The notes under the pieces: generated by a model
Seen by the model: only the letters and a program-made list of their open reading frames with translations
The model's database searches: none
What the model was told of the DNA's origin: nothing
Program-made: the position numbers and the translations under genes
DNA from: a virus
Taxonomy: Duplodnaviria; Caudoviricetes
Virus record (IMG/VR): IMGVR_UViG_3300044606_000240
Coordinates: 1-51,301 of that record
Strand: one strand, 5' to 3'
Length of the DNA: 51,301 nucleotides
Shown: piece by piece, positions 13,685 to 51,301 of the stretch
How positions within the stretch are numbered: the stretch's first letter is position 1
Layout: every line of letters begins with the position of its first letter

Positions 13685-13873
13685 TCCCTAAATATTTTTA
13701 GTTATTTAATTGCAATACCTTCCATTAGTTTGTTATTGGATATTGATTTATTAAAAATAATATGATGGAGCCATGACTAAGTTTACTCGGAGATTTCACA
13801 TTGTTCTGCAATACTTGGTGCACCGTTCTTGCATCTTTTCCTTTCACTGTCTTGCGTCAGAGGACTCCGTCTG

Positions 13874-13946
13874 TAACCCCGAAAGGATTTAAACCTCTGT
13901 TTCCACATTGAGAGTGTGACGTTCTGGATCGCTAAACTACGGGGCT
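13874..13946 (-). tRNA. tRNA-Glu(CTC), non-canonical loops
   Basis: acceptor AGCCCCG/CGGGGTT, D GTTT/GAAC, anticodon TCACA-CTCTCAA-TGTGG, T AGAGG-TTTAAAT-CCTTT; lacks D-loop GG and T-loop TTC. Confidence 0.7.
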
Positions 13947-20026: not shown

Positions 20027-20171
20027 TGCTGAGTGTCATTACCTGGTTGTAGCATACAGGATAGAGCAGGTTAAAGATGGAATAGCAACGCTGATACTTT
20101 ATCTGTGTAATGATACGAGCAAAGATGGTTCGCTATATGTTTATAAGGAATATGAAATAGAGAGTCTATGA
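19962..20171 (+). CDS. hypothetical protein
   Basis: PKFELGQEV...YKEYEI; GAGGAG SD; ATGA overlap with TerL. Confidence 0.7.
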   Translation: MGKPIILEPKFELGQEVRSVLNAECHYLVVAYRIEQVKDGIATLILYLCNDTSKDGSLYVYKEYEIESL

Positions 20172-21826: not shown

Positions 21827-24034
21827 ATGAATATATTAAGAGACGATGTATTGGCAGGGGATAATCAGATAGTAACTGGCTATAAGAAAACAGAAGATGT
21901 TGCTTTATCGGAGCAGTTGCTGGACGAATATAGCGGTGGTAAACGTGCTTCCTGGGCAGAACAGGCAAAACAGGATGATGATTTCAGGCATGGAAACCAA
22001 TGGACAGACGAGGCTAAGCGTGTATTGGAGGGGAGGGATCAGTCTCCCATAGTAGTGAATGTTATACAGCCCGCAGTAGAGTTTGCTGTTGCTGCCCTTA
22101 CCACCAACAAGCCGAGATTTACTTCTACAGGCAGAGAAGATTCCGATACACGGACGGGGAAGGTCTTCTCTGATCTGCTTACTTACGTCTGGGATATATC
22201 TAATGGCAATATGGAACTCAAGCAGACTATTGATGATTATTATGTCAAAGGTATGGGACTGCAATTGGCTTATGTTGATCCGTATGCTGACATGGGTAAA
22301 GGTGAAGTTAAGATTACCAGCATTGATCCGCTGGATGTTTATATCGATCCAAACAGCAAAGACAGATTGTGCCAGGATGCTGCTCATATACTTATCGTTA
22401 AGAAACTTACTAAAGAGCTGATACTCAGATGTTATCCTTTAATGAGGGGTAAGCTAAAGCTTGCTGTTCAGTCAGAAGAAGACAGAACTCCCACTACAAA
22501 CAGAGTAGGATTAACATCCGAGGAAATTGATGTAACAGATAGTTACCATGAGCATTATGAGGTAATTGACAGGTACAGTAAAATCAAACTTGAAAGATAT
22601 AAAGTATATGATACGTCTGCTGATAAAGAATACCTGTTCAATGATGCTGAGTTTAAAGAGTTTTTACAGAAGCCTGCTTTTATACTGCTTAGTGAGTTTG
22701 GAGAGCCGCAATATGTTACTACTGGAACTGCTGTTGAAGAAGCTGTACAGATGTTTGAGCAGACAGGCGGTATTTATCATCAGGTTATTGATGAAGCAAG
22801 CCAGCAGCCGATGATAGTCCCCGGGGAAGCAGATGAAAATGCTATTCCGAATAGTGAAGTAGTAATGAAACCTGTTACAATGGCTGATTTAGTGCAGGAA
22901 GGAATTATACTTTATGCTCTTGTACTTACAGACCGGGTTAAACGGGTAATGAGTATAGGTGGATACGAACTATATAATCATATCATGGAAATAGAGGATT
23001 ATCCGGTAGTTCCATTTATGAACAGGCATAGAAGGAATCCTTTTCCTATGTCTGATGTAAGGTTCGTAAGACCTATCCAGGAATATGTAAATAAAATAAG
23101 AAGTTTGATTATAGCTCATGCTTCATCTTCTACAAATGTTAAGTTATTGATTCCAAGAGGTGCTGTTAATAAATCAGAAGTAGAACAGAATTGGGCTAAA
23201 GCAGGAACTGGTGTAATAGAATTTGATGCAGAAATTGGTACTCCTATAATCGTTGGGCCTGTACCATTACCAAATGAACTCTACAAGAATGAAGCAGATG
23301 CAAGGAAAGATATACAGGAAATACTTGGTGTATATACCACTATGTATGGAGATCCTTCTTCTGCTCCTGATACTTATAAAGGCACTGTGGCTCTGGATGA
23401 ATATGGTCAGAGGAGAATTAAATCCAAGCAGGACGATATAGAGCAGGCTCTTAATCAATTGGCAAAAGTAGTGGTACAACTTATACAGATTACTTATACA
23501 GAGCAGAAAGTTGTAAGGCTGTTAAGACCCAATAATGCTCCTATGGAAATAGCTATTAATATACCAATCTATGATGATATAACCGGTAATGTAAAAGATA
23601 TTATCAATGATGTAACTGTTGGTAAGTATGATGTAGTGGTAGTATCTGGTTCTATGCTTCCATCTAACAGGTGGGCACAGTTTGAATACTATATGCAGAT
23701 GTATGAGAGGGGTTTAATTGACCAGATAGAAGTACTAAAGAAAACAGAACTCGTTGATATCGAAGGTGTACTTAACAGGCACAATATTATACTCCAGATG
23801 CAGCAGCAGATACAGTCAATGGCAGATGAAATTAAGACTCTTGAAGGTGATTTGCAGACAGCAGAAAGAGAATCTGTAAATGACAGGAAGAGACTGGAAG
23901 TAGAGAAATTTAAAGCAAGGTTAAGTTCAATGTCCAGCAGGGCAGAAGCTGCAGTACAGATGTATCAGAAAGAGCTGGATATGGAAGTAAAGATGACAAG
24001 GCAGGAAATTAAGAGTGGAAATACCAAGAAATAA
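21827..24034 (+). CDS. portal protein (P22-like)
   Basis: F..GNQW, N.I.P, YIDP, Q..VNK.RS motifs, C-terminal coiled coil; follows TerL. Confidence 0.92.
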   Translation: MNILRDDVLAGDNQIVTGYKKTEDVALSEQLLDEYSGGKRASWAEQAKQDDDFRHGNQWTDEAKRVLEGRDQSPIVVNVIQPAVEFAVAALTTNKPRFTSTGREDSDTRTGKVFSDLLTYVWDISNGNMELKQTIDDYYVKGMGLQLAYVDPYADMGKGEVKITSIDPLDVYIDPNSKDRLCQDAAHILIVKKLTKELILRCYPLMRGKLKLAVQSEEDRTPTTNRVGLTSEEIDVTDSYHEHYEVIDRYSKIKLERYKVYDTSADKEYLFNDAEFKEFLQKPAFILLSEFGEPQYVTTGTAVEEAVQMFEQTGGIYHQVIDEASQQPMIVPGEADENAIPNSEVVMKPVTMADLVQEGIILYALVLTDRVKRVMSIGGYELYNHIMEIEDYPVVPFMNRHRRNPFPMSDVRFVRPIQEYVNKIRSLIIAHASSSTNVKLLIPRGAVNKSEVEQNWAKAGTGVIEFDAEIGTPIIVGPVPLPNELYKNEADARKDIQEILGVYTTMYGDPSSAPDTYKGTVALDEYGQRRIKSKQDDIEQALNQLAKVVVQLIQITYTEQKVVRLLRPNNAPMEIAINIPIYDDITGNVKDIINDVTVGKYDVVVVSGSMLPSNRWAQFEYYMQMYERGLIDQIEVLKKTELVDIEGVLNRHNIILQMQQQIQSMADEIKTLEGDLQTAERESVNDRKRLEVEKFKARLSSMSSRAEAAVQMYQKELDMEVKMTRQEIKSGNTKK

Positions 24035-25783: not shown

Positions 25784-26562
25784 AAACGTTCTTGGAGTTG
25801 TAAAATCTGGCTATATGCTGGAAAGCCCTTAGAGCCTTGAAGACCGAAATGGTAACACTTTCAAGGATTGGGAAATCAGCAGGAAAGGAACAAAATGATA
25901 AAAACGAAAGAAGCAGCCTGGTTAGCAGGGATAATAGAAGGCGAAGGAAATTTAGATTTGAATCAGAGATGCGGACAGAAGAGGAAAGATGGAGGTACTT
26001 GGGCATGGAATCGCCCACGTATCATCGTTGGGAATACTGATGCTCGCATGATAATGGAAATTTCCCGAATATATGACAAAATAGGATGTAAATTCTGGTA
26101 TTCTTTACGTAATAAAACAGTAGACACTCACAGAGATTGTTTATTGATAATAACGATAGGAACCAGAAATGTAGCAAAGGTATTAGAAGCAATACTGCCG
26201 TTTATGATCTCAAAAAGAGAACAAGCTAAGATATTGCTGGATTATTGCCAGTGGAGAAATAGATGTAATGCCAATAATCAAAAGGGCATATCAATGGCAA
26301 TTAAAACTACTGGAAGAGAGTTAGTTCCAGAATATACCGAAGCTATAAGGGTTTTAAAATATGATTTGCCTAATATTCTGTCATTATCTCGCAAGGCTAA
26401 TGAGGTGCTTTGTGTTCCCATATCCTCAACGACTAATATGCCAGACATCCTTAAAGAAAAAAGGATGAAGATAGAGTCTGAACTATGCCGAGAGGCATAG
26501 AGTGGTAACTATGAAGTATGCCACCGCCATTATTTTGATAATGGTATTAAGTAACAATGTTG
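25784..26562 (+). mobile_element. group I intron (779 nt)
   Basis: P1 AACTCT/GGAGTT with U-G at splice site; P3 TCTGGC/GCCAGA; P ATGCTGGAAA, Q AATCAGCAGG, R TCAACGACTA, S AAGATAGAGTCT; terminal G; splicing restores frame (KLFEHR). Confidence 0.92.
25895..26500 (+). CDS. intron-encoded LAGLIDADG homing endonuclease
   Basis: single motif WLAGIIEGEG; LPFMISKREQA; purine-rich SD before ATG 25895. Confidence 0.9.
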   Translation: MIKTKEAAWLAGIIEGEGNLDLNQRCGQKRKDGGTWAWNRPRIIVGNTDARMIMEISRIYDKIGCKFWYSLRNKTVDTHRDCLLIITIGTRNVAKVLEAILPFMISKREQAKILLDYCQWRNRCNANNQKGISMAIKTTGRELVPEYTEAIRVLKYDLPNILSLSRKANEVLCVPISSTTNMPDILKEKRMKIESELCREA

Positions 26563-27731
26563 TCGAGCATAGAAGTGGTTTTCATAATCAAAAATTTGTA
26601 GTAAATGACAGTTCTATATCTGCCTGGTCTGCATCAGGTGCTCCCGGCGGAACAGCGACAGTAGACGCAGCAGATGGTATAGTGGGATTGTCTTCGAGTG
26701 TAGATTCCAGCTATCTCAATCTTACAGTTGAAATCTGGGATACTACTCTTTCTACATACAAAGGTTTGGCACTTATTACAGCAGTATCCAGTGGTGCTAT
26801 TACCTTCAAGTCTCTGGGTAATCCAAGGGCAACAGATAATATAGCATTAGCGCTGGCAGATAATGATGTATGCCTGGTAATCGGTAATGCATTTGGTGAA
26901 GGTACAGAAGCTCCTGATGCCTTTGCTGATGAATTACAGGTAGTCTATAATTCTACGCAGATATTTAAAACTGCTGTAGAAATTACAGGCACACTGTATG
27001 AAGCTGCACTCAGAGGCTACAGCAATGAACTTGCAAGGTTAAGAGGCGAGAAGAGTAAGGAGCATAAGATGCAAATGAACCAGACTCTTCTTAAGGGTGC
27101 AAGGGCTAATGGTATTGGTTCTACAGATTTAGCGGGAGATAATACTTCTACAGATTCATTTGCTACTCACGTTACAGATGCAAATGGCAAAACAGTTCGT
27201 ACCACAATGGGTGTTATACCTGCTATTTATAAGTATGGCACTACTTCCGGTGACAGCCAGAATATCTTTACAGTTGTAAAGAATGAATATGGTTATAAAA
27301 ACTTCGTAGAAGATACAGAAAAGCTGTTCCAGTATGTACCGGCAGATGGCGTTAAGAAAGCCGTTTGCGGTATGGGGCCGCTTTCATACTTCTCTACCTT
27401 GTCTGGTGGTGAAGGGTTTATGAAGAACTCCAAATGGAAAGTACAGATGTCTGAGTGGAAGACCAATAAGCTTGGATTTAATATACGTATACTTGAATCT
27501 CCGCATGGAATGATTGAGCTGGCATACGATCCTGCATTAAGGGGACAGTACAAAGATGCAATGGTTATCTATGACGAAGATAACTTAGATGTAGTACAGT
27601 ACCGTCCTATGAAATACCAGACCAATATCAAGACTGATAATGGTTACGATGGTATTAAGGATCAGTATTTTGCTGATATGGGTCTTGGTATTACCCTTAT
27701 TGAAGCTCATTCTGTTTGGAATTTCAGGTAA
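26563..27731 (+). CDS. major capsid protein exon 2 (spliced product 444 aa)
   Basis: GNAFGEG, YNSTQIFKTAVEITGT, ESPHG motifs typical of SU10/DUF5309-like capsids; position after scaffold. Confidence 0.88.
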
Positions 27732-35358: not shown

Positions 35359-37337
35359 TGTCAGAGACCTATCCTATAACAAGTTTTACAAAGGGTAATA
35401 TTACTGCTCCTGATAAACAGGATATACCGGATGATGCATGCGTAGCATCAAAGAATGTGGACGGAGATGTAGAAGAAGGTAAGCTAAGGGGTATTAATAA
35501 GAATGCCGTATTTTCTTCTACTGTGGGACAGGATATAAGTCATGGAGCGTGGATATTAAATACAGATGCCAAGCATCATTTTGTATATCATAATTTATCT
35601 GGCAATGCTATTAAAGTAGTAAATGATTTCTATGGTTCCAAAACTGTTTCTACTCTTGCAAATAGTAATATATCTGCAAATACATGCTTTACTCAATATA
35701 ACAGAGAGGTGCATGTAGGAACAGGTTATAATAGTGCAAATATTCCATTATGGGTGGGTTATATAGATTATGGACAGTTGGGACAATCCATTCCTTCTGG
35801 ACTGCAGATTCTTTCTGCTAATCCGGCAACGAATTCAGTAAATATGTGGGGAGATATAGTGCCTCCTGGATCTGCTGGTAAATTTGGGTTTGGACAGTCT
35901 TATAGCATAACGGATGCTGGCGAAGGAGAGACGGGCAATTTTTCAGCTGAAACTTTAGTTATATATAAATTCTCTTTAGAGTACGATAATCTACAGGAAT
36001 CACCATTATGCCCAGAAGGTTTAAGTGTCAAATTTACCTCTGATGCTATAAGTGTCAAAATAGGAGTATCTGCATGGGATACTTATACTGTGGGGGTTGG
36101 ATATCATACTGCTTCTACAAATCCAAGAATAAGTGCAGTTAAGTTATACAGGGCTACATCAGTAGATGGAACAAATACCGGGTTAGGGTTATTCAGATTA
36201 ATTAAAACTTTTGATTTTACTACTCTTGATGACTTTCAGGGCACAGATTCAGAAGGAGCTACTTATAAAGGAGATGCATCAGTAGCCTTTGTAGTTGATG
36301 ATGGTTCATTCTCACAGGAAGGAGCTGGTGTTACCTATGAAGCAGAAGCTGGTCTGCCTCAAACCATAGAGACTTGTACGGTAAACTATGCTTTAAGCAC
36401 AGCGTTGGATGGTTATCATTTTGTGGCTAATTGTTATCATACAGAATTACCAGATGCAAGACATTATATATTCAGAAGCAAGAAATTAAGATATGATATG
36501 TTTGACTGGACTTCTGATATATTAAGATTGCCAGAAGTACCTACTGCTATTGTGGGTTATGAAGGCAGATTATATGCCTTTGTGAATAATGCAGTATACA
36601 GGATTGATCCAGAGAATTTAATAATAGAAAATAAATTTGAAGGTGCAGGTGCTATTTCAAGCAGAAGTGTATGCGTAACTCCATACGGTTTATTCTTTGC
36701 TAATAAAAACGATGCATACAGATTATATAACAATGAAATAACTACAGTATCAACACCTATATCTACCTCTTCTACTGAGACGCTTGCAAGAGGCTGGAGA
36801 TACGATACGGGCAGATTGGGTATAGTATCACATATACCGGCTACTTATTGTGCCAAGAAGAAATATGTAATGTTTGGTTTTATTGACAGTACAGGACTTG
36901 TATATAAGATTTGGGCATATCATGTGGCCAAGGACAGATGGGACAGATGGGATTTTGATGATTCTATAGCTTTGGCAGGTGTTGCAAATATAGGACAAAT
37001 ATCTGGAAAAGATGGAGAAGTATATATAACTAACGGTACTAATATATGGTTGGTATTCGGAGATACTACAGCCACTTATGAAGTAGGATGGATTTCAAAA
37101 GTATGGCATTTTGGTACTCCTTCACAGAAGAAGTTTCTTAAAATTGTGAAAGGTACAGCGAGTGGATTACTTACAGCTTATTATGGATTAAATAATACCG
37201 ATCCAACCACTGTATATTTTCCTGGTAATTTAATTAATCAGTATTTCTATTCCTTACAGTTGAAATTAATATTACCATCGAATATAGAAGTATCAAATAT
37301 AGAGATTGTGTTCAGAAGATTAGTAGGCAGCAGATAA
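35358..37337 (+). CDS. putative tail nozzle/stabilisation protein
   Basis: beta-rich 659 aa; SFTKG...DIPDD...NVD N-terminus; W.SK...G.P..KK C-terminus. Confidence 0.65.
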   Translation: MSETYPITSFTKGNITAPDKQDIPDDACVASKNVDGDVEEGKLRGINKNAVFSSTVGQDISHGAWILNTDAKHHFVYHNLSGNAIKVVNDFYGSKTVSTLANSNISANTCFTQYNREVHVGTGYNSANIPLWVGYIDYGQLGQSIPSGLQILSANPATNSVNMWGDIVPPGSAGKFGFGQSYSITDAGEGETGNFSAETLVIYKFSLEYDNLQESPLCPEGLSVKFTSDAISVKIGVSAWDTYTVGVGYHTASTNPRISAVKLYRATSVDGTNTGLGLFRLIKTFDFTTLDDFQGTDSEGATYKGDASVAFVVDDGSFSQEGAGVTYEAEAGLPQTIETCTVNYALSTALDGYHFVANCYHTELPDARHYIFRSKKLRYDMFDWTSDILRLPEVPTAIVGYEGRLYAFVNNAVYRIDPENLIIENKFEGAGAISSRSVCVTPYGLFFANKNDAYRLYNNEITTVSTPISTSSTETLARGWRYDTGRLGIVSHIPATYCAKKKYVMFGFIDSTGLVYKIWAYHVAKDRWDRWDFDDSIALAGVANIGQISGKDGEVYITNGTNIWLVFGDTTATYEVGWISKVWHFGTPSQKKFLKIVKGTASGLLTAYYGLNNTDPTTVYFPGNLINQYFYSLQLKLILPSNIEVSNIEIVFRRLVGSR

Positions 37338-39730
37338 TGGCAATTAATGTAAACATACCAAATAGTGCCCCCAAGTATCTCAGGGATATAGTAAATGCTA
37401 TTGATGAATTAAAGAAAGTTACCTGGCAGGGAACTACTAAACAGACTTCAAGAGATTATGAAGGTACAGTAGGTACTATAAAGCATATCAAATATGGTAC
37501 AGATGATTACAGGTTAAGAATTAAAACAGAAGATGGCTATGTAGAAACGTTAAAAGGAACTGTAGCTAAAGATACTTCTGAATACGTTATCACCAATAGT
37601 ACGTTAGGGAAGCAGCTTGGAAAGGTAACTGGTGAAATAGAAGACCAGATGGGCAATTTAAGTGATGGAATAAGTCTGCTTGAATCACAAATATTTACTG
37701 ATGCAAATGGAAAGATAAATAAAACTCCGAATCCTTTATCATCAGGATTATATCTGGGTTCCACACATCTTGGTTACTGGACTGGTTCTCAGTGGAGAAC
37801 CTATATGAATAATAATGGAGGTTTCTTTCTTGATGGAACCAATGGCTATTTGGCCTGGAACCCGGTTACAGATACTCTGAATTTAAAAGGTAATATATAT
37901 ATAAATAATCCTGGCAATATCAGGATATCGGATTTGGATAATGATGCAAATTTTGTAAAAACCTTCTATCAATCTTCTGCTCCAACATCAGGTATGTCAA
38001 CAGGAGATTTATGGTATGATACAGACGATAAACAAATATACAGGTATACTTCTGGTTCATGGGTATCCCTGTTGACTCAGGGAGTAAGAACTTTCTATCA
38101 AACCACTGCTCCTGCGTCAGGCATGATAACGGGAGATGTTTGGTACGATACAGATGATAAAACAATGTACAGGTTTAATGGCAGTACCTGGGATGTTTTA
38201 GTAAACAGAACCCTGATAACAGATGCTGGTATATATTCAGGAACAATCAATGCAGCCCAGGTTAATGCTGGTGAGCTTAATGGTTTTACAATGACTATAG
38301 GAAGTGGAACAAGCATTTATAAAGCAGATACGAATGGTATCTATCTGGGTAATTCTACATTTGCAAGTGCGCCATTTAGAGTAACTCCCGCTGGTGCTTT
38401 AACAGCAACAAATGCTACTATTACAGGCAGTATTACTTTAACCAATACTATACCTAATGACAAGGTGTCTGGTTTGGGAACGCTGGCTCTTAAAAGTTCA
38501 TTGCTTGGCAGTGATGGTGTTACTACGGTTATTACTGCATCTGGCATCCAGACTGGTTCTATAAAAGCAGGAGATATAGCCGCAAATGCAATTACAGCCG
38601 ACAAGATAAATGCAAGTGCAGTTACAACAGATAAACTAAATGCGTTGGCCGTAACTACAGATAAGCTTGCTACCGGGGCTATAACGGCTGATAAAATATT
38701 TGCCGGAAGTATTACATCAGATAAGTTAAGTGTTTCCACTCTTTCTGCTATATCTACTAATTTAGGAACGGTAACAGCTGGAAGTATTGATGCATCTGAT
38801 GTCAACATAATAAATCTGCATGCAAATAATATTGTAAGCGGAACATTGAGCGCTGCAAGAATAGCAGCAGGAAGTATAACTACAGATAAACTTAATGTGA
38901 CAAGCTTATCATCAATTTCAGCAAATTTGGGAACAATCACAGCTGGGAATATAACCGGAGTAAATATAACCGGAGCTACAATCACAGGCGGAATTTATAG
39001 AAGCTCAACTTCCGGAGACAGAATTGAAATCACCTCGGGTGGTATCAGCCTTTTTTCTGCAACCGGAAATCGTGGTACTATATCATATTCGCCGAATTCT
39101 ATTAATTCTTTACAAATAAATTCGGAAAATGAAATCGAACTTATCCCAAATGGGCAAGTATATGTTGGAGGAAGCCTATATGCTGATAGTTATTTACAAG
39201 CGTACGGATATAAATCTTATGATGGCAGTATTGGTGGCACATCTACAACAGGTGGAGTAACTTTTAAAAATGGGCTATATATTAGTGGAAGTCTATCTGG
39301 AAGTGGAACAGTTACAAGTGTCGCTATTAGTGCTCCTTCTGCAATAACAATATCAGGGAGCCCAATAACGACATCTGGGACTATTACATTAGGCTTGGCA
39401 TCTGGTTATACAATTCCGACGACAACACAAGCTTCAAACTGGACGACTGCTTATAATTGGGGCAATCATGCGAGTGCAGGATACCATACAGGTACTCTGG
39501 CTATAGGCAGTGGTGGTACGGGAGCTACTACTGCAAGTGTAGCAAGAACTAACTTGGGTTTGGGTACTATGGCCACACAGAATACGGGTGCCGGTGTAAC
39601 ATTTGGTTTTATAGCAGATTTAAGATTTAATGGCGGTACATTACAGCAAAGGTCTGTAATGCCCGTATTTGCAAATGGAATACTTACAGGTTATAGTATC
39701 CAATCTCCCGAATGGCAAAATGTAATTTAA
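37337..39730 (+). CDS. tail fibre/spike protein
   Basis: two 43-aa GD.WYDTDD repeats, ITADKI repeats, GGTGAT...ARTNLGLG. Confidence 0.85.
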   Translation: MAINVNIPNSAPKYLRDIVNAIDELKKVTWQGTTKQTSRDYEGTVGTIKHIKYGTDDYRLRIKTEDGYVETLKGTVAKDTSEYVITNSTLGKQLGKVTGEIEDQMGNLSDGISLLESQIFTDANGKINKTPNPLSSGLYLGSTHLGYWTGSQWRTYMNNNGGFFLDGTNGYLAWNPVTDTLNLKGNIYINNPGNIRISDLDNDANFVKTFYQSSAPTSGMSTGDLWYDTDDKQIYRYTSGSWVSLLTQGVRTFYQTTAPASGMITGDVWYDTDDKTMYRFNGSTWDVLVNRTLITDAGIYSGTINAAQVNAGELNGFTMTIGSGTSIYKADTNGIYLGNSTFASAPFRVTPAGALTATNATITGSITLTNTIPNDKVSGLGTLALKSSLLGSDGVTTVITASGIQTGSIKAGDIAANAITADKINASAVTTDKLNALAVTTDKLATGAITADKIFAGSITSDKLSVSTLSAISTNLGTVTAGSIDASDVNIINLHANNIVSGTLSAARIAAGSITTDKLNVTSLSSISANLGTITAGNITGVNITGATITGGIYRSSTSGDRIEITSGGISLFSATGNRGTISYSPNSINSLQINSENEIELIPNGQVYVGGSLYADSYLQAYGYKSYDGSIGGTSTTGGVTFKNGLYISGSLSGSGTVTSVAISAPSAITISGSPITTSGTITLGLASGYTIPTTTQASNWTTAYNWGNHASAGYHTGTLAIGSGGTGATTASVARTNLGLGTMATQNTGAGVTFGFIADLRFNGGTLQQRSVMPVFANGILTGYSIQSPEWQNVI

Positions 39731-41971: not shown

Positions 41972-44900
41972 ATGGCTGACCAGCAGTTAGATCTGCTTAA
42001 TGCTCTGTACCAGAGCAATCCTTCCTATTTCAGTGAAGAAGACATTTCATTATTACAAACCAGAAACGAACAGGAGGATATACCTTTCCAAAAGATAGAA
42101 GATACCCGGGTAGTAGAAGATAATCTATGGAATACTGTAAGCAGGGGTATGTTAATGCTACATACAGGTATGCTTGAAGGATTCACTACCTTACCGGTAA
42201 ATGATTGGGTGGGATTAAAACCAAGAAATACAGCAGAGCAATTATTCTCAAGTATAGGACAGTTAATGGGCTTCATTGGTGGTTTTATACCTGGCCCTGG
42301 ATTGCTTGGTAAATTAGGACTTACTTCTGCAGCCAGAGGTATTAGTATGCTGGGCAGAACCGCTAAAGCTGCAAAGATAGCAAGCGAAGGTAAATATTTT
42401 CTGCAATTAAAATCCCTTCCTATGATGGGTGCAGACTTAATGATGAAGGGATTAAATAAAGCTACAGGCGGAGGAGCAGCATTAGAAGCTGTTAAATTCT
42501 TAGGTAAAGGGACTGTGGGACGTAATTTACTTGGGGGTGGATTACACCTTGGATTTGCTTCTGGAATAGCCTCTGCACCTATATATGATCTTTCCTGGGA
42601 TAGTTTCGTAGACAGGAGATTAGAAGGAGCTATTCATGGCGGTATATTTGGTGCTGGTAACAGAGCGATAGGTAACCTTATAGGCAGAGGCGGTAAATTA
42701 GATTTGGGTAAGGTATTATTTAAAGGAGAACCGGATGAACTTATAGCCTTATCCAAAACTGGTTCACAGGTAGCAGCAAAGACCTTAAAAAATCAGGATA
42801 AAATAAATATGTTTGCCAGAGCTTTAAGCAGCAGTTTATTCTTCGGTATGCCTTCTACATTACAGGATTATCCATTAGAATTACAGGTATATGAATATCT
42901 TCTTAATGCTTACTTTGGAGCCAAAGAAATGCCATTAGCACAGAGAACAGCATTAGAATTATCCAGACCATTTGCAAGTAATCCCGTTAAAAGAGATATG
43001 CTATTGAGACCTGAAAAGCATATACCAAATTATGACAATCTGCCAGATGCAGTTAAGAATGAATTGCAGATACAGGCTGAATTTCAGTTTGGTGGTACTG
43101 TAAATGAATTTTATAATAATACAGAGCTTGCTGCTGCTAAAACCGTAGATAAAGTACAGCAGGTATTAGAGACTCAGCTTAATGAAGGTAAAATCAATCA
43201 GAAACAGTATGGTGAGTTATTCAAGAACTGGAGAATCAACCAGGTAGTTGAACAAGCAGCCAAAGAAGGTAAAACAGAAGAAGAAGTACAGCAGAAAATA
43301 ACAGAGAAAACCGAACAGTTAAAAGATCAGCTGGCAGAAGAATCATTTATCAAATCTCAATATGAAGAGCTGATGAACTCTGTTCTAAATAAAGATTTGG
43401 GTGATCCAAACCTGCAGCATCAGTCTATAGTTCAGGGCAATAAAGAGCTGGATGATTTTTACCAGCAATCAGGATTAGCAAGACCATACAGAGAACCATT
43501 CAGAGAAATAAGTAAATGGATTTCTAATAAAAAAGGTATTCTTATTGAAGATGTAGCTTCCCAGGTAGAAATAGAAAAGGCTGTAATTAAAGAAGCACAG
43601 CAGTATTTGGGTAAAAAAGATGCAGGTGAAGCTGAATGGAACAGCTTTAAAGAGAATATAGCCAAACAGGCAAATGCTGAACTGGATGATAACATAACCA
43701 GGGAATTAAGACGTACATGGGTTAAAGTAAAACAATCAGAGCAGAGATTATCTTTATCTGTTAAAGCAGATAATAGCATATCAGAACCATCTGTTATTAC
43801 ACCGGAGGGATTAAAAAGGGTTCCTGAATTTGCTCCAAGACCTATAATGGCAGACTTACTTATACATGAATCCGGCTTGACTACGCTAAGGGAGATAAAG
43901 AACTATGAGCAAAAAGATGGTACTGAAATAGATATATACAGGGCTATAGATGAAGGCCTGTTAACTGATAAAGACCTCATTCTTAAAGCTTATAATACTC
44001 CTTTATATGCAAACCAGGATGGCAAAGTAATTAAACTCGCAGATAATACTGCTATTTACGGAGGAAGGAAAGATGAACCTGTGCTGTTATCTGGCAGATT
44101 CTTAATAGCAAAAGAAGATGCTAATAGAGTCATAGAAGAAGCCAGGCCTTATGTTGGGAAAGATTATCAGAAGGGTTTAGAGAGATTTGGAATAGCAGAT
44201 AAAGAGGCTTATGACCATATATATGCTAATAACATAGAAATGCTCAGACAGTTTAATGGATTTGATACTGTCAGGGAACTGTTTGAAGCTAAAGGTAAGT
44301 TTATAACAGATCCAATAGCATTAACCAAACGCTTCCAGGTATTTAATGACCATTCTCCAAAGCTTGAACCCGGCTATATGAAGGATATAGATGATAACTT
44401 TAAGTTTATTATACTAAATGCCAGGAATAGTGATGGTACATTCCATAGTGAACTTGAAGGTAGTGAATATACTTTCTATGCTAAGGACAAAGATAAGAAA
44501 GTACAGTTATTTAAATATGATGCTCATTTGGATGGTGGTGTATTTGTAAGAGATGATGTATATAATAAAATGGTATCTTATTTTGGTTATGATACCGATA
44601 CATCGTCTGCCAAAGGAGTTCATATATTCAAAGGCGATAGTGGAGAACCAGCCATTGTGGATGGTTATACTCGTTTATGGAGAGGAGAAACGAGTTATGA
44701 GAAAGGTAGTACTAAGGTTCCAGATTGGGTAAAGGATGCCAATAAAGACAAACCCAGGGGAATATTCTTCTCTGCCAGTAAGGAAGAAGCCAATTATTAT
44801 GACCAAAAATTCGGGAATAAGTCTGGTAACATAAGCTATATAGATGTACCTACAGCAGATATAGAAGCATACAGAGCTTCTAACAATGGAGGTAAGCAGT

Positions 44901-47900
44901 ATACAGCACAGGGAATGGCGGTTAAAGAGTTTTTTTTACCAGAAGAATTAGGTGAGGAAAGGATTTCTTACAAAAACAATTCTCAGGGCGGCTTTATAGG
45001 TAAACTTGCATGGCATAAAGCATCTCCTGAATTAACCAAATGGATGACAGAGAATAATATCCATGCGTTTCATTTTGATACTACAGCCAAACAAAGGGGA
45101 GCAAGAGAATCCGCTGACTGGCAGATGAAAGATGGGCAATTCATATTTCCAAAAGGTTTTACTGTATATGACTCACCCTGGGAAAGTGTTTCTGTAAATT
45201 CAGCAGAAGACATACATGGAGCGGTAGAGAAATATCAGAAAATAGCAAAGACTGTTTCTACGAATATAGATGGTTCTACTGAACTGGGAAGAAAAGCACA
45301 AAAAAGCTATATAGACAACTTTGTAAAACCTAAAATATATTCATCCCCGGAAGTATCCAGAGAAATAGCCGGGGCTATTGATTTATATAGTAAAAATAAT
45401 ATAGCAGAAGCAGACAAAATAGCAGATAAAATAGATATAGATTCTATTGGCATGCAAGATAAAATCAGAATACTGAATACCACTAAAGTAGCCAATAAAC
45501 TATGGAAGAAAATAGTAGACGATATACTTAATATTGATCCTGTAGAAGATGATCTAACTTATTTTGACGGTATTATAGAAAATGAAACATTAGAATATAA
45601 AGATGACTTTATTAAGGCTAAAGGTACTGCACAAAGATACCTGGATGCTATTGGAGATAATTTAACTCCCCAGTTATTACAATTACCCGGTATCAGAGAA
45701 TATTATGAAGCTGCATTAAAGAGATATTTTATAGAACATACCATTACTCCGAGAACCAAATATTCAGCAAAGCTTATATTTACTCCGCATGATCCTTTTG
45801 TAACTGAGAAATTAGGAGGTATAAAGCCAGGTTATTATTATGCCAATGATGGATTAAAGAGCAAGATAATACCTACAAGCAAGGGAGAAATGACTCTTGA
45901 AGAGGCATATAAAGCAGTCCCGGATGAATTAGAGCACATGTTTGTGCGTGTACCCACATCTTCTGCTTCTGGTGTAAGATTATTAAAGTTTGGAGGTTTT
46001 ACAGACACAGCAGGTTATGGATTTAAAGTACATCCAGAAGAATATTTTAATATGGATGGTGCTGATAATGATATAGATAGCGCATTTGTATACTTTGATA
46101 TGCCCAAAGAAATAAAAGATTATTATAGAGCACAAAGAGATCAATGGTATGAGAAAGCCAAATATAATGGCAAAGATATAAAAGTATCCAAAGAAGCTAA
46201 ACAAAATCCCGAGTTTCTGGATAAAGAAAATACTCAGCCATTATATAAATTTGATCCGATAAGCTACTTAGAAGTTAATAAATCTGCTTCTCAGGGTAAG
46301 GAACAATTAGGTTATGGTATGTCTACTGGCAACAGACTAAAAGCCATATATGATATGCTAATGAACCAGAAAAGAGGTTATCTCTTCGGCTATACTAAAA
46401 ACGGAGAAGTAGCCTGGAGAGCAAAAATAAATAAGGATAGAAATATTATAGAAGATTTGGTAAGAGATGTGGTTAACTATAGTGCTGATGCTGCTGATGG
46501 TAATAAGCTTAAAGATAAAGATCAGGTACAATCATTGTTATTTAAGAAATTCTTTACCAATATAGAATCTAAAGATAAGAAGGGTATATGGAGACTATTA
46601 TCTCCAACAGCAACAAATAAATTTACAAATAATGAAGGTAAAGAGATAACTTATAGATTATTTAATCTGAAAGCTAATCCAGAATATGCCGCTATGATGA
46701 AGCTGGATTCAGCAGCTAAAGGAAAGGAATATAGATTTGGCAGACCGGCAATCAAATATAAGTTTGAAGATATAATTAAGATATTTAAGGATTACAGAGA
46801 AACATTTGAGAATAAAATACCCAATACCTGGTATGGAGCTATGCATGAACTTGGGACTATGGAATACCAGTATAAAGGCATATCGGGATGGCTGGGAGGC
46901 AGAACTAATCTTGGTGACTGGCTGCAGGAATTTACAGAGAAATGGAATAAAAAGTTAATAAGGAAATATGTCGGTAGATTTGTAGTATCTACTCCTAAAG
47001 AGAACTTATTAAAACAGAGACAGCTATTTATAGACAGACACAGACATTTGTATGGTGAAACTCCATTAGAGCTGCAAAGATTAAATACTACTGCTGACAG
47101 GTATGAATCAGAACTTGCAGCACAGGATTTATATGATAATGCTTCTGCTTTATACTCTATCAGAACCGGAGCTGTATTAGATAAAGTAGTAGATGGAAGT
47201 AAATCGATAACTGAAATCCAGAAAAAAGTAGCTGAGTTCCAGAGAGATTTAGGAAATATACGAAAAGCTAAAAAGAATAATACTGACTATATTAAAAATG
47301 ATGGTATATATAATACAGATAAACTATCCAGAGATGTAACTGAATACTATAAAACATTAACTAACAATCAGCCAGGCAAAGATTACTTCGAAGCTTTACT
47401 ATCTTCCAGCCTCCATATACAGGAAATGTCATTGGCTAAGTATATAGAGAAAGAGATAAGGGAATTAAAGTCTGTTGATAAGGATTCTGAAAGAGCCAGA
47501 GAACTGCGGGATATAATTAAATATAAATCCAAAGAATGGAAGTCTACAAATGCAGATACATTCTTTATGAACCTGGACGTTATATCTGCCAATACAATGA
47601 AGAATATAGCTAATGTATTTCAGAAACTATCAGATGTCACATTCCAGCCTGTAGATTGGAAGAAAGCAGCAACTGCAAGTATAACAGACGCTGGTGGATT
47701 AGCGGAAGTTATAGGTGATGTAAGTAGGGAGAAAGTAGTTATACAGACTGATACAGCCAAAGCTAAAGAATTAGTAGACTCTGTAGATTCTATTCTCAAA
47801 AGAAAATCTGCCATTCTTGAAGCTGGCAAAGATAAGGTATTAAATGCAGAACTGGAAAGTGTTAATAAAGTATTCCAGGATATACTTATACGCAAACCTT

Positions 47901-50860
47901 TTCTAATAGCTAATCTTGAGGACAGGTTAATGTCGTTCGGACAGGAGAGATGGGGAATAGCCAAGCCTTTTAAGGCTCTGACTTTACCAGAATATAAGAG
48001 TTTTGTAAGAGAATTAGCAAGGCTGGATAGAGCCAAAACAAATGGAATGGAATTAGACAAATCTGATTATTACTGGATACCGGAGAGATTCGATGCCAAA
48101 CACAGGCAATATGATTATGGTTATACTGAGTCTGTTATTAAATACTGGAATGGAGAAGGTATTAAGGAAGCTGTAATCAGGGAACCGTTAAGCAGAATGG
48201 GCAAGAATACCAGGTCTCTTATGACTGGCGCTAAAATGAAGGATGAATATGTAGCTGCTGTTCAGAAAAGAATACTTGAGGATTCATATATATCTAAAAT
48301 ACAATCTGATTTAAACAGGCAAATAGCAGGTTCAGGAGATGATTTGTTCTCAATTGCTATTGCAAGAAGAGAAAGTGGTTTAAAGGGAAAAGTATATAAA
48401 GATAATCTCAGACAGGCTGATAAGTTATTTAATGAAAAGTATAAAGATAAAAAATTTAATCTTTCAAAAGCTGATGGTTCTACAGTAGCAAGAACAGCAG
48501 ATGAAATAATAAATGGTATATCTGCGGAAGTAACCAGGCATGCTAAAGAAGCATGGAAACTTGTATTTGATAAAGCAGTCATGGAAAAATGGATTAGTCC
48601 ATATTCTGCAAGTAAAATGATTGATAATTATCAGGGTATAGATTGGCTTGATACAGAAAAAGCTATACCCCAAATTGCAAGCAAATTTATTTCTGGCAGC
48701 AGAGATATACCTTTTGTAACATTAAATGGCATAGATAGGCTTATACATTCTCACATGGCTATGCATCATAATTTCAGTGTATTCGAAGTTGATCCTATAA
48801 CTTCTGCACCAAGATGGGTTACCAGGAGAGCCATAGACCTTAAATTATTTACTGACAGAGTTAACTTTCTGAATGCAAGAGCAGCAGAAACAACTACTGG
48901 CGAAATCACTCTGCCTAATGGAGAGAAACAAGTAATATCTGTGCCTAAATATGCCTGGTTAAGTTACAGAAGTGATTTTACAGATTCAGAAGTATTCAGG
49001 GAATGGCAGAATCATTACTGGCCTCACAGAGATATTCCTAAAAAGTTTATGGAACAGAGGATGCAGGAAGAATTAGTTCAGGCACAGGCAGCTAATGATC
49101 TTAAAACAGTAGCAGATATAAGACTTAAATATGCAAGAGCTTATGGTGATGATATACTTGAAGATGCTGGCAGAACTGAAAATACTCTAAGTGTATTAGA
49201 GGGTGGAGTTACAGAAAAAGAAATGACACAAACACATTTTTTCTCTTCTCCGGGTTCTTTAATGAATAGGGACAAGGAAAATCCCCTGCCTGGTTATAGT
49301 ACCAAATTAAAAGCATGGGTAGATTATGAAACGGGTTTAGCTTCTACATACTGGAATAAATTAACTGCTCTTGTAACAGACTGGAATATAAGACAGTTTA
49401 CACATGAATCTGCTATTGGCAAAAATGATATAGGAAAAGAGAATGCTGTGCAGTGGGAACGCTTTATGCGTAATACAGTAAGAGAGGTATTGGGATATCC
49501 TTCAAGATTTCCAGATAGCTGGATAGATGATCCTGGCTCTAAAATCAAGGGACATCCATATTATTGGTTAACTAATGATTATTGGTTAAGAAAAGGTAAG
49601 ATGGCAGATAAATTTTTTGGTGTGGATAAGAACTCTCCGCAGGCGGTAAAAGATGCTGTTAAAAACAGGAAACTGGCTGCGTTGAGTAATGTAGAAGGTA
49701 AAGCGCAGATGATGTCCTTACTATTTTCTCCAAAATCATTTCTAACCAATCTTATTACAGCCAATATAAACACCGTTATATCTGCTGGCTGGAGATTCCG
49801 TAAAATGGCAAGTGATTTAGCATTGCTAAAGTCCATAAATCCTAAATGGCAGAACTGGTCTGATATAGAAAGAGATATAGATCTGCTTGGCGGTATAGAA
49901 TCCTTTATCAGGAATGAAGCTGCTCTTAGTCAGAGATTTACATCCGAACAGGCTAAAAGGTTTATGGAAAAGGCTATTGCCTATATTAAAAAAGATAAGA
50001 ATCTTAATGATAAATCTTTGTATGAAATAGCCAAAGAAGAAGGATTAACAGAGGAATTCGTTAATACCGGTGCTTATTTTATGCGTAAATCAGAACGTAT
50101 GGGAAGAAGAGCTGCATGGCTTTCTCATTATTTAAAAGCAAGAGAAGTATTAGAAGCCTCTAATTATGCTTTTGAGTGGGATGATCCCTGGCTTATATCT
50201 TTTGCTAATAAAGGGGTTAATGCTACTCAGTTCTTATATAATAGTTCTAACAGACCTGCGTTTACAAGAACTTCGCTGGGTAAGATATTTACAAGGTTCC
50301 AGCTATTTGCATATAACTCCGTTATGTGGAGAAAAGATATAGTAAAACAGGCTGCTGAATCCGGGTGGAATTATAATTCACCCGAGTATCAGAAGTTCCA
50401 GAGAATGGCTACAGCAGATCTATTTGTAATGACATTGGCAACATTACTGCCTGCCAGTTTATTTAATGCTGCTTTGCCTCCTCCATATAATTATCTTAAA
50501 GATTTTACATCTTTCTTATTTGGAGATAAAGAAGAGCAGGAGAAAGCATTCTTTGGTATATTACCATACCCGGCTAATGTAGTACAGCCGATATTTCCGC
50601 CAGCATCAAGATATTTTACTTCCACATTCAGCAGCTTAATGACCGGTGACTGGGATAAGTTTACAGGCTATCATATATGGTCGTGGATGCCATTTGGCAG
50701 GGTAATGAATGATGCAAGAAGGGGATTGGATAACCCGGCTATGTTTATGGAAAGGAACTTCGGTATACCGGTAATTACACTGGCTACCGGCATGAGTAAA
50801 GCAAAGAAGAATTCAGAAGGTAAAGTTAATCTATCTGGTCTTCTCTTTGAGAATCCTTAA
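41972..50860 (+). CDS. giant virion protein, putative single-chain DPBB RNA polymerase with ART-like insertion
   Basis: HLDGGVFV, FVRVP and GADNDIDS (DxDxD, aa 1365-1369); LWRG/FFS/KEF insert; GAGGAG SD. Confidence 0.8.
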   Translation: MADQQLDLLNALYQSNPSYFSEEDISLLQTRNEQEDIPFQKIEDTRVVEDNLWNTVSRGMLMLHTGMLEGFTTLPVNDWVGLKPRNTAEQLFSSIGQLMGFIGGFIPGPGLLGKLGLTSAARGISMLGRTAKAAKIASEGKYFLQLKSLPMMGADLMMKGLNKATGGGAALEAVKFLGKGTVGRNLLGGGLHLGFASGIASAPIYDLSWDSFVDRRLEGAIHGGIFGAGNRAIGNLIGRGGKLDLGKVLFKGEPDELIALSKTGSQVAAKTLKNQDKINMFARALSSSLFFGMPSTLQDYPLELQVYEYLLNAYFGAKEMPLAQRTALELSRPFASNPVKRDMLLRPEKHIPNYDNLPDAVKNELQIQAEFQFGGTVNEFYNNTELAAAKTVDKVQQVLETQLNEGKINQKQYGELFKNWRINQVVEQAAKEGKTEEEVQQKITEKTEQLKDQLAEESFIKSQYEELMNSVLNKDLGDPNLQHQSIVQGNKELDDFYQQSGLARPYREPFREISKWISNKKGILIEDVASQVEIEKAVIKEAQQYLGKKDAGEAEWNSFKENIAKQANAELDDNITRELRRTWVKVKQSEQRLSLSVKADNSISEPSVITPEGLKRVPEFAPRPIMADLLIHESGLTTLREIKNYEQKDGTEIDIYRAIDEGLLTDKDLILKAYNTPLYANQDGKVIKLADNTAIYGGRKDEPVLLSGRFLIAKEDANRVIEEARPYVGKDYQKGLERFGIADKEAYDHIYANNIEMLRQFNGFDTVRELFEAKGKFITDPIALTKRFQVFNDHSPKLEPGYMKDIDDNFKFIILNARNSDGTFHSELEGSEYTFYAKDKDKKVQLFKYDAHLDGGVFVRDDVYNKMVSYFGYDTDTSSAKGVHIFKGDSGEPAIVDGYTRLWRGETSYEKGSTKVPDWVKDANKDKPRGIFFSASKEEANYYDQKFGNKSGNISYIDVPTADIEAYRASNNGGKQYTAQGMAVKEFFLPEELGEERISYKNNSQGGFIGKLAWHKASPELTKWMTENNIHAFHFDTTAKQRGARESADWQMKDGQFIFPKGFTVYDSPWESVSVNSAEDIHGAVEKYQKIAKTVSTNIDGSTELGRKAQKSYIDNFVKPKIYSSPEVSREIAGAIDLYSKNNIAEADKIADKIDIDSIGMQDKIRILNTTKVANKLWKKIVDDILNIDPVEDDLTYFDGIIENETLEYKDDFIKAKGTAQRYLDAIGDNLTPQLLQLPGIREYYEAALKRYFIEHTITPRTKYSAKLIFTPHDPFVTEKLGGIKPGYYYANDGLKSKIIPTSKGEMTLEEAYKAVPDELEHMFVRVPTSSASGVRLLKFGGFTDTAGYGFKVHPEEYFNMDGADNDIDSAFVYFDMPKEIKDYYRAQRDQWYEKAKYNGKDIKVSKEAKQNPEFLDKENTQPLYKFDPISYLEVNKSASQGKEQLGYGMSTGNRLKAIYDMLMNQKRGYLFGYTKNGEVAWRAKINKDRNIIEDLVRDVVNYSADAADGNKLKDKDQVQSLLFKKFFTNIESKDKKGIWRLLSPTATNKFTNNEGKEITYRLFNLKANPEYAAMMKLDSAAKGKEYRFGRPAIKYKFEDIIKIFKDYRETFENKIPNTWYGAMHELGTMEYQYKGISGWLGGRTNLGDWLQEFTEKWNKKLIRKYVGRFVVSTPKENLLKQRQLFIDRHRHLYGETPLELQRLNTTADRYESELAAQDLYDNASALYSIRTGAVLDKVVDGSKSITEIQKKVAEFQRDLGNIRKAKKNNTDYIKNDGIYNTDKLSRDVTEYYKTLTNNQPGKDYFEALLSSSLHIQEMSLAKYIEKEIRELKSVDKDSERARELRDIIKYKSKEWKSTNADTFFMNLDVISANTMKNIANVFQKLSDVTFQPVDWKKAATASITDAGGLAEVIGDVSREKVVIQTDTAKAKELVDSVDSILKRKSAILEAGKDKVLNAELESVNKVFQDILIRKPFLIANLEDRLMSFGQERWGIAKPFKALTLPEYKSFVRELARLDRAKTNGMELDKSDYYWIPERFDAKHRQYDYGYTESVIKYWNGEGIKEAVIREPLSRMGKNTRSLMTGAKMKDEYVAAVQKRILEDSYISKIQSDLNRQIAGSGDDLFSIAIARRESGLKGKVYKDNLRQADKLFNEKYKDKKFNLSKADGSTVARTADEIINGISAEVTRHAKEAWKLVFDKAVMEKWISPYSASKMIDNYQGIDWLDTEKAIPQIASKFISGSRDIPFVTLNGIDRLIHSHMAMHHNFSVFEVDPITSAPRWVTRRAIDLKLFTDRVNFLNARAAETTTGEITLPNGEKQVISVPKYAWLSYRSDFTDSEVFREWQNHYWPHRDIPKKFMEQRMQEELVQAQAANDLKTVADIRLKYARAYGDDILEDAGRTENTLSVLEGGVTEKEMTQTHFFSSPGSLMNRDKENPLPGYSTKLKAWVDYETGLASTYWNKLTALVTDWNIRQFTHESAIGKNDIGKENAVQWERFMRNTVREVLGYPSRFPDSWIDDPGSKIKGHPYYWLTNDYWLRKGKMADKFFGVDKNSPQAVKDAVKNRKLAALSNVEGKAQMMSLLFSPKSFLTNLITANINTVISAGWRFRKMASDLALLKSINPKWQNWSDIERDIDLLGGIESFIRNEAALSQRFTSEQAKRFMEKAIAYIKKDKNLNDKSLYEIAKEEGLTEEFVNTGAYFMRKSERMGRRAAWLSHYLKAREVLEASNYAFEWDDPWLISFANKGVNATQFLYNSSNRPAFTRTSLGKIFTRFQLFAYNSVMWRKDIVKQAAESGWNYNSPEYQKFQRMATADLFVMTLATLLPASLFNAALPPPYNYLKDFTSFLFGDKEEQEKAFFGILPYPANVVQPIFPPASRYFTSTFSSLMTGDWDKFTGYHIWSWMPFGRVMNDARRGLDNPAMFMERNFGIPVITLATGMSKAKKNSEGKVNLSGLLFENP

Positions 50861-51301
50861 AGCTTCGTCATCTATATATTTCTTGACATAACAGGCAATT
50901 TCCTCAATTTTCCTGGAGTGGAAATTCTTAAGGGCTATATTTTCTCTGAATAGCAGAAGATTATTAGCCCTTAACTCTTTTATAGTCATATTAAGAGCAC
51001 TGATAGCATTCTCTTTTGCCTGTCTTAGTTTCTCATAATATTCCAGCATGTGCTGATAAGAACGTATAATCTCTACGTATTCATTTACAGTTTCTATCTT
51101 TTCTGGCAGATTTACTCCATATACAGGAGCAAGTAATACTGTATCAAATCCTTCGCTTCTTAATTTATTCAGCATACTTTCCGGTGGTTTACCTTTTCCT
51201 TTAAGTATCTTATTCAGCCATGATGGAGATACTCCATATATCCTGGCTGCTTTAAGCTGGGTTTTATGTTCTGATTTTATATGTTGTAAAAGCTGTTTCA
51301 T
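50831..51301 (-). CDS. XRE-family HTH protein with coiled-coil C-terminus
   Basis: TQLKAARIYGVSPSWLNKILKGK..P; ATG at the window edge so the start is uncertain. Confidence 0.75.
   Translation of the reverse strand: MKQLLQHIKSEHKTQLKAARIYGVSPSWLNKILKGKGKPPESMLNKLRSEGFDTVLLAPVYGVNLPEKIETVNEYVEIIRSYQHMLEYYEKLRQAKENAISALNMTIKELRANNLLLFRENIALKNFHSRKIEEIACYVKKYIDDEALRILKEKTR

Follow-up and report, generated by a model that had tools for sequence, protein, structure and literature searches.

An ADP-ribosyltransferase (ART) fused to an N4-like virion RNA polymerase (vRNAP) has been described for Roseovarius Plymouth podovirus 1, and its authors predict an Alt-like modification of host proteins that is coupled to early transcription (Iyer et al., 2017, PMC5512222). 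Another class of phage polymerase is represented by gp66 of phage phi14:2, a virion component comprising two double-psi beta-barrels (DPBBs) and a connector of ~140 residues, in which each Asp of the DFDID motif at 1361-1365 is required for activity; as far as its accessible text goes, the preprint describes no ART-like insert in gp66 (10.1101/2020.03.07.982082). Here we report on a 51,301-bp IMG/VR provirus record (IMGVR_UViG_3300044606_000240; CheckV completeness rating 100%), the whole of which constitutes the window of our analysis. Its giant open reading frame (ORF; 41972-50860, + strand, 2962 aa) encodes a candidate virion-type RNA polymerase (RNAP) of the two-barrel, gp66/QDE-1-like kind that carries an inserted domain. 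We interpret this insert as a probable ART-like effector domain of minimal size and R-[ST]-E type, which the first barrel of the polymerase acquired recently.

Like the vRNAP of the Roseovarius phage, the protein in the window would unite an RNAP and an ART-superfamily domain in one giant polypeptide, with virion delivery presumed in our case. According to Iyer et al., the polymerase of the Roseovarius phage is T7-like and single-subunit, its ART belongs to the H-Y-D type of ART-PolyVal/Tox-ART-HYD2, and the two are linearly fused (PMC5512222), whereas the window carries an R/[ST]/E domain that fails the ART-PolyVal model PF18760 and appears to lie inside the catalytic-core barrel module of a two-barrel RNAP. 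The original prediction knew of no ART inserted in an RNAP catalytic barrel; the wider claim that an injected polymerase with an ART lacks precedent is not supported, given the published fusion, even though polymerase fold, ART clade and mode of joining all differ. A search of a paper library for ADP-ribosyltransferases in connection with two-barrel or crAss-like virion RNAPs found no relevant paper, the one retrieved (PMC10884466) dealing with high-throughput transcriptomics of phage-host interactions. The pairing of ART and vRNAP in N4-like phages was already known; novelty lies in the family to which the domain belongs, in the class of polymerase and in the topology of the insertion.

We located the inserted segment in the translation of the giant ORF, in which positions 44636-44985 of the window encode aa 889-1005. 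All peptide strings from which an ART had been predicted were present (window 44576-45045 and whole ORF): TRLWRGE starts at aa 900 and, together with GIFFSASKEEANYY, SYIDVP and KEFFLP, falls between the flanks SAKGVHIFKG (from aa 879) and GFIGKLAWHK (from aa 1007), and the DG motif noted upstream corresponds to AHLDGG at aa 851. The envelope of the family hidden Markov model (HMM) delimits the inserted ART-like domain to aa 889-1002 (44636-44977, + strand). It is bordered on the left by the strand SAKGVHIFKG (aa 879-888; 44606-44635, + strand; predicted strand at residues 80-87 of the aa 800-1470 model) and on the right by the strand GGFIGKLAWHK (aa 1006-1016; 44987-45019, + strand; predicted strand at residues 209-217 of that model), which contain the invariant lysines K881 and K1011, respectively (both 13/13).

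A word-indexed search with aa 700-1500 of the giant protein retrieved 12 other giant proteins of 1694-3300 aa. When the linker between the conserved flanks was measured with flank HMMs, it comprised 117 aa in the window, compared with 3-6 aa in 12/12 of these homologues. The closest of them, P0003, is 88% identical over the aligned parts and lacks the insert; its alignment breaks exactly at the segment, reading IFKG, five residues and then GGFIGKLAWHK. We also assembled 86 loci (L001-L086), consisting of 80 of 304 IMG/VR relatives, found by a pattern scan based on the family alignment, and 6 loci from GTDB genomes, the latter mostly metagenome-assembled genomes (MAGs) of Bacteroidota and Rhodothermales. 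Among the loci that could be evaluated, with both flanks on one ORF, the linker measured 2-16 aa (median 3) in 53/53, the other 33/86 being not evaluable, and the HMM of the inserted domain matched 0/86 loci (E<=1e-3). Given the short linkers in the relatives and the lack of domain matches at these loci, an insertion in the lineage of the window is by parsimony far likelier than repeated loss. The segment is thus a clean in-frame insertion specific to the window's lineage, and the indel expected in the original prediction was borne out by both homologue sets. Scans of metagenome and viral contigs did not recover the DNA encoding P0003, and a first scan of viral contigs with the window's own protein gave no match.

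A precise in-frame insertion confined to one lineage might also be expected if an intein or some other element that removes itself were present, or if the assembly were chimeric, in which case the segment would be no functional part of the protein. We consider this very improbable. Asp889 is the first residue of the insert, a terminal His-Asn is lacking, Gly is the next host residue, and with ~112 aa the insert is shorter than mini-inteins usually are. Both of its ends fall at a hairpin tip, with no loss of the frame. Nor does the composition break sharply, since the GC content rises mildly, from 0.31-0.38 in the flanks to 0.38-0.42 in the insert. Furthermore, the same domain is found in 81 clusters as an ordinary stand-alone or embedded unit. 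With the intein signature absent, the domain known from these clusters and the frame intact, we rejected both the intein and the chimera.

The wider occurrence of the domain emerged from a phmmer search of aa 885-1010 against 1.84 billion cluster representatives, which returned 81 proteins at E<=1e-3, 17 of them at E<=1e-10 (best E 4.1e-25). Because the family matches span query positions ~6-116 (~110 aa) throughout, the boundaries of the domain are those of the insert. The 87 domain-bearing proteins vary widely in size, 12 having <=200 aa, 19 having 201-700 aa and 56 having >700 aa, up to a maximum of 4000 aa. Among 22 long carriers scanned against Pfam, ART-PolyVal was the commonest companion (5 proteins), followed by LPD38, SLT and RadC (2 each), LPD22, LPD3 and helicases (one each); nuclease domains were present as well. 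Individual carriers include P0016, where a GNAT domain directly precedes the family domain, P0025 with SLT and LPD38, and P0038 with a zeta-toxin/AAA_33 kinase-like domain and DUF7831. Most carriers have no Pfam match at all; of 6 that were scanned as examples, 3 had none and 3 had one weak match each. The giant multidomain carriers, which combine LPD, SLT, ART, helicase, RadC and similar domains, can be counted among the polyvalent proteins, whose domain company in phages and conjugative elements was described by Iyer et al. (2017) (PMC5512222). At least six carriers (P0046, P0047, P0049, P0050, P0057 and P0107) additionally hold a separate, canonical ART-PolyVal domain. In P0107 (285 aa, 22 member sequences), the two stand in tandem, with ART-PolyVal at aa 18-113 and the family domain at aa 144-265, and the HMM of each weakly cross-matches the strand-2 region of the other, which suggests that the two domains cooperate or are paralogous.

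No model in Pfam, NCBIfam, PHROGs or PADLOC matches the domain. HMMER searches with the insert and with the giant protein against Pfam, PHROGs, PADLOC and PDB sequences yielded nothing meaningful, and the family profile found nothing among PDB sequences or in NCBIfam; hits to antibody light chains, L31 and VHR phosphatase, with E values of ~0.1 to 1, were taken as chance. Word-indexed searches with the family profile retrieved 3 short and 10 long proteins, none of them informatively named, and a cluster look-up of 10 family members returned only "hypothetical protein". A name for the domain is therefore absent from the sources searched, while the full catalogue of Iyer et al., 2017 may list it under another name. 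The only family member found with a public accession is the stand-alone homologue P0033 (189 aa), an NCBI hypothetical protein of an "archaeon" MAG that occurs on 6 contigs of up to 111 kb. Two proteins, P0058 (470 aa) and P0068 (376 aa), match the central part of the domain only, each of them in four partial stretches arranged in tandem. Repeat proteins or a chance match in composition may account for this, and both were left out of the family counts and of the alignment of 80 family members on which the conservation counts given below are based. The segment in the window is hence one copy of a small (~110 aa), promiscuous and mobile domain family that occurs alone or inside giant polyvalent proteins, and the family may represent a new clade of minimal ARTs in phages and conjugative elements.

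We then turned to the protein that received the insert. An AlphaFold2 (AF2) model of aa 800-1470, computed from a 10-sequence alignment, reached a pLDDT of 70.2 and a pTM of 0.67, with most host parts at 80-95; the insert scores low in this model because the alignment contains none of its homologues. In a Foldseek search, the model matched best to the phi14:2 vRNAP gp66 (6vr4_A, E 1.2e-5, 550 columns), followed by nine QDE-1 chains (E 3.1e-5 to 6e-4) and then by bacterial (beta'), archaeal and eukaryotic largest subunits. Like gp66 and QDE-1, the protein is predicted to contain two DPBB modules, a helical connector and a DxDxD motif. The motif, DNDID in the context GADNDID (46064-46078, + strand), would supply the metal-binding triad of the second barrel, D1365, D1367 and D1369, each invariant (13/13), and its position (1365-1369) comes near to that of DFDID in gp66 (1361-1365). 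D854, G855, K881, K1011, K1040 and R1045 are likewise invariant (13/13), and all polymerase signature residues are retained in the insert-bearing protein. Unlike these structural resemblances, sequence identity to gp66 and QDE-1 is only ~11%. HMMER detected no match, and neither did tblastn when 50,697 GenBank phage records were searched with aa 1006-1470. The genomes also differ, being proviruses or contigs of ~40-53 kb in Bacteroidota-type MAGs and not crAss-like. Genomes of crAss-like phages measure ~100 kb. The models and the conserved residues support the assignment of the host protein to the two-barrel RNAPs of gp66/QDE-1 type, in keeping with the polymerase that had originally been predicted on the basis of the window alone.

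The predicted order of elements is a beta-rich module (aa ~810-1100), a helical region (~1104-1260) and a second beta-rich module with DNDID, the insert lying in the first module and thereby preceding both the helical connector and the DxDxD barrel. There it separates the predicted strands at aa 879-886 and 1008-1016, which bear K881 and K1011 and which in the relatives are joined by a turn of 2-16 residues. Topology and conservation thus support a hairpin tip within the first barrel module as the site of the insert, in line with the barrel location given in the original prediction.

The giant vRNAP-like protein itself represents a large uncultured family. It includes 304 tblastn-confirmed IMG/VR relatives on contigs of ~10-54 kb, and prophage copies are found in MAGs of Bacteroidota, Rhodothermales and Peregrinibacteria. 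Other large inserts occur elsewhere in the polymerase core, at aa ~965-1515 of P0006, at aa ~790-990 of P0009 and after DxDxD in P0013. The insert of P0006 (~550 aa) contains an HExxH motif, which by its sequence may mark a zincin-like peptidase. With different inserts at several core sites, the scaffold therefore seems to accept modules of the polyvalent type repeatedly.

Having defined the insert and its surroundings, we asked what kind of fold it adopts. Modeled from an alignment of 41 sequences, the insert alone reached a pLDDT of 86.1 and a pTM of 0.76, with five strands predicted at aa 899-905, 930-934, 954-960, 986-990 and 998-1000. In Foldseek searches against the PDB, TreX/TreTu entries supplied chains for ranks 1-10 (E 1.3e-2 to 6.6e-2, prob 0.84-0.96, TMq ~0.40), along with pertussis toxin and ParT, and lower ranks were taken by cholera/LT A1, PARP14, the SdeA mART, ExoS and the rifampin ART (Arr). 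In BFVD, the best match was an unnamed protein (E 4.2e-3), and weaker matches were named PARP, putative ADP-ribosylase, PolyVal ART, DarT and MuF fusion; across both databases, TMq ranged from 0.40 to 0.52. By language-model features, both the copy in the window and the stand-alone member P0021 had Tox-ART-HYD1, TreTu_C, PARP, Arr and exotoxin A as neighbours, with scores of 0.86-0.92 that serve as leads only. PF18760 weakly matched 2/41 family segments at E<=1 (best E 6.1e-4). Finally, an hhalign comparison of the family with a 5-sequence ART-PolyVal alignment scored 21.4 (P 0.008), compared to a maximum of 16.1 over 40 column shuffles and 13.8 for the reversed alignment. This alignment places LYR904G opposite VYHG, with R904 facing the ART-PolyVal His, and G-x-[W/F]932-F ... 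A-x-x-Y opposite G-x-Y-F ... A-x-x-Y.

The conservation pattern within the family adds to this picture. R904 (codon 44681-44683, + strand), the candidate strand-1 Arg, lies in the motif RLWRG (consensus RLYRG) and is Arg in 79/80 members (99%). E986 (codon 44927-44929, + strand), the candidate catalytic Glu, lies in KEFFLP and is Glu in 75/80 (94%); its codon is the one named in the original prediction. These are the two best-conserved polar residues, and both occupy strand positions typical of ARTs, whose triad sits on strands 1, 2 and 5 (PMC9825190, PMC11606950). R904 is the next-to-last residue of the predicted strand aa 899-905, and E986 the first residue of aa 986-990, the fourth predicted strand. 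Between them, the candidate strand-2 Ser, S934 (FFSAS; codon 44771-44773, + strand), closes the predicted strand aa 930-934, after which a helix begins, giving spacings of 30 and 52 residues along R904-S934-E986. At this position, the residues among the 80 members include Thr (37), Ser (19), Tyr (12), Ala (5) and Val (4). The window retains the family residue at R901 (96%), E906 (78%), W919 (88%), G930 (95%), F933 (99%), D958 (96%), P960 (89%), N971 (79%) and F988 (91%). It has W in place of Y903 (96% in the family), I in place of R931 (89%) and F in place of W932 (93%). The R-S-E signature claimed at the outset accordingly holds for its Arg and Glu, whereas its Ser is weakly supported.

Comparison with characterized ARTs, whose fold is a split beta-sheet of strand order 4-5-2/1-3-6, places these features in context. 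TreX, TreTu and Tre1 (8S2M, 8S2N, 9GCO) gave the best Foldseek matches, although the matched chain may be the toxin or the immunity protein, and resemble the insert in their small size, in an Arg at the end of strand 1 and a Glu at the start of strand 5, and in similar spacing. TreX has R15, S54 and E100/E102, which corresponds to spacings of 39 and 46-48, resembling the 30 and 52 of the insert, and TreX lacks strand 4, the insert model likewise having five strands only (PMC11606950). TreTu is an active small toxic ART domain with functional residues from R6 to W68 (PMC9825190). Unlike these toxins, the insert has no ExE, and the match is limited to a TM of ~0.40 at 14-18% identity. Moreover, TreX, TreTu and Tre1 are interbacterial toxins of type VI secretion systems (T6SS)/Rhs with immunity proteins and not phage virion proteins.

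ART-PolyVal resembles the family in other respects. Both occur in the same class of polyvalent proteins, with at least six joint carriers, their profiles are weakly similar (hhalign 21.4 vs <=16.1), and they have the patterns hY[HR]G and G-x-[YW]-F ... A-x-x-Y in common. The ART-PolyVal triad comprises H on strand 1, Y on strand 2 and D on strand 5 (Iyer et al., 2017, PMC5512222); the insert has R904 in place of the H, either S934 or F932 (a position held by W in the family) in place of the Y, and E986 in place of the D. In contrast to ART-PolyVal proper, the window's copy has no match to PF18760 (none at E<=10; gathering score 31.2 bits), its triad is R-[ST or W]-E, and the two domains hold separate positions in the shared carriers. 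We therefore rejected membership in ART-PolyVal, based on the failed profile, the departure from H-Y-D and the separate placement in six carriers.

Several observations weigh against an ART-like effector. Regarding the fold, no PDB match reached E<=1e-3 in Foldseek, the best having an E of 1.3e-2, a TMq of 0.40 and an rmsd of ~8 A; the matching chains B/E of 8S2M, 8S2N and 9GCO may be the toxin or the similarly sized immunity protein; the hhalign probability with ART-PolyVal is only 5%; and neither the window's copy nor the family profile matches any ART by HMMER (Pfam, PDB sequences). Regarding the active site, Ser or Thr stands at position 934 in just 56/80 members (70%), with hhalign pairing position 932 (W or F) and not 934 with the ART-PolyVal Tyr; an ExE or QxE motif is absent, there being no Glu or Gln two residues upstream of E986; and the window's copy departs from the family at three near-invariant positions (Y903 to W, R931 to I, W932 to F), of which R931 is also lost in the nearest relatives P0015, P0016 and P0052. 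Since at least six carriers contain a canonical ART-PolyVal at another site of the polypeptide, the inserted type of domain need not itself be a transferase. Lastly, the placement inside the barrel rests on the order of secondary structure and on invariant residues.

These points bear on two further explanations. The likeness to ARTs could be spurious, the insert being another small alpha/beta module of the polyvalent kind, for example a nucleic-acid-binding or nuclease domain, that modulates the handling of template or RNA. Every ART similarity falls below conventional significance, HMMER detects no ART, and polyvalent proteins carry many unrelated small domains (PMC5512222). However, four partly independent approaches, namely Foldseek against PDB and BFVD, language-model features of two members, the weak PF18760 matches and the hhalign score above shuffles, lead to ART families and to no competing fold class, and the conserved Arg and Glu occupy the places of the ART triad. 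A spurious likeness is thus doubtful in our estimation. Several weak lines converge on the ART superfamily and on no other fold, and we regard homology of the insert to the ART fold as likely. Support for the fold claimed in the original prediction is nonetheless weak: the structural matches are mostly ARTs, but none attains E<=1e-3, the TM stays at ~0.40 and Pfam provides no ART match for the window's copy.

Alternatively, the fold may derive from an ART and yet perform no transfer here, the domain acting as a module that binds NAD+/ADP-ribose or a target, as an NADase, as a helper of ART-PolyVal or as a degenerate copy. Its co-occurrence with a separate ART-PolyVal in the six carriers named above, in tandem in P0107, would suit this explanation, as would the W, I and F in the window where the family has Y (96%), R (89%) and W (93%), the lack of a universal Ser/Thr on strand 2 and the missing ExE/QxE. 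Contrary to this, R904, D958 and E986 are 94-99% conserved in stand-alone and embedded copies, as an active site would be, 12/87 carriers have <=200 aa and no partner domain, and the changes Y903W and W932F exchange one aromatic residue for another. We judge a non-transferase role to be unlikely, albeit somewhat less so than a spurious likeness. Transferase activity of the window's own copy is an evenly balanced matter. The ART-like effector reading as a whole, a minimal ART-superfamily domain that was recently inserted into a virion RNAP and would ADP-ribosylate a host target, is in our view reasonably probable.

According to the model that we favour, the window's lineage acquired the domain recently and in frame, at the tip of a tight beta-hairpin of the first, beta-subunit-like double-psi barrel module. 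Its candidate active site would consist of the Arg R904 at the end of strand 1, the Ser/Thr position S934 at the end of strand 2, with an aromatic residue at 932, and the Glu E986 at the start of strand 5. We infer that virions package the polymerase and eject it into the cell, as with gp66 and N4 vRNAP, and that the tethered domain would bind NAD+ and ADP-ribosylate a host protein or nucleic acid where early transcription starts. As the domain is embedded in the barrel, it could not be released by proteolysis without cutting the polymerase, and it probably acts in cis at the site of ejection and transcription. What the analysis itself demonstrates is the insertion and the family of its domain, together with the similarity in fold and the pattern of conservation, whereas the use of NAD+, transferase activity, target, and packaging and ejection are inferred. 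The scheme is analogous to T4 Alt and to the ARTs fused to N4-like vRNAPs, for which Iyer et al. (2017) put forward the same logic. T4 Alt, a member of the Alt/VIP2 R-S-E clade, is a virion-packaged, injected ART that acts on the host transcription machinery and may serve as a functional model for the insert. It is a separate protein of ~70 kDa, and no match of the insert to it in sequence or fold was obtained.

A bolder idea, which we view as a long shot, is that the position in the barrel is purposeful. Placed in the first catalytic barrel, beside the invariant lysines that flank the active-site cleft, the domain might act through NAD+ on the polymerase's own substrates or products, ADP-ribosylating template DNA or the nascent transcript, or joining NAD-capped early RNA to host proteins by a ModB-like RNAylation. 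If this were true, the protein would be a transcription-coupled nucleic-acid-modifying polymerase instead of two independent activities on one chain.

In the provirus, the giant ORF lies downstream of the genes for the terminase large subunit (TerL, 20168-21745), the portal (21827-24034), the major head protein (26502-27731) and a tail-like protein (37337-39730). The best-conserved parts of the giant protein are its N- and C-terminal regions (aa 1-320 and ~2500-2962; window 41972-42950 and 49500-50860), which are rich in invariant columns of Gly, Pro or aromatic residues, contain hydrophobic stretches with much Gly and may have a role in packaging, ejection or membrane insertion. The 3' end of the gene shares 30 nt with a minus-strand ORF (50831-51301) that is open at the end of the window. 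A single tRNA-Glu(CTC) gene is found at 13873-13946 on the minus strand.

Our findings extend the polyvalent principle, in which effector domains ride on proteins co-injected with DNA, from the N4-like single-subunit polymerases to two-barrel vRNAPs of the gp66 type. They define a family, comprising 81 representative clusters, for which Pfam, NCBIfam, PHROGs and PADLOC offer no model, and indicate that the catalytic barrel module tolerates the graft of a whole domain of ~112 aa at a hairpin that otherwise measures 2-16 residues. The insert-bearing protein of the window and the insert-free P0003, identical at 88% of positions over their aligned parts, constitute a natural pair that should reveal what the domain adds. 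Should the insert be the ART-like effector that we propose, a single injected protein may combine transcription with the chemical modification of host targets.

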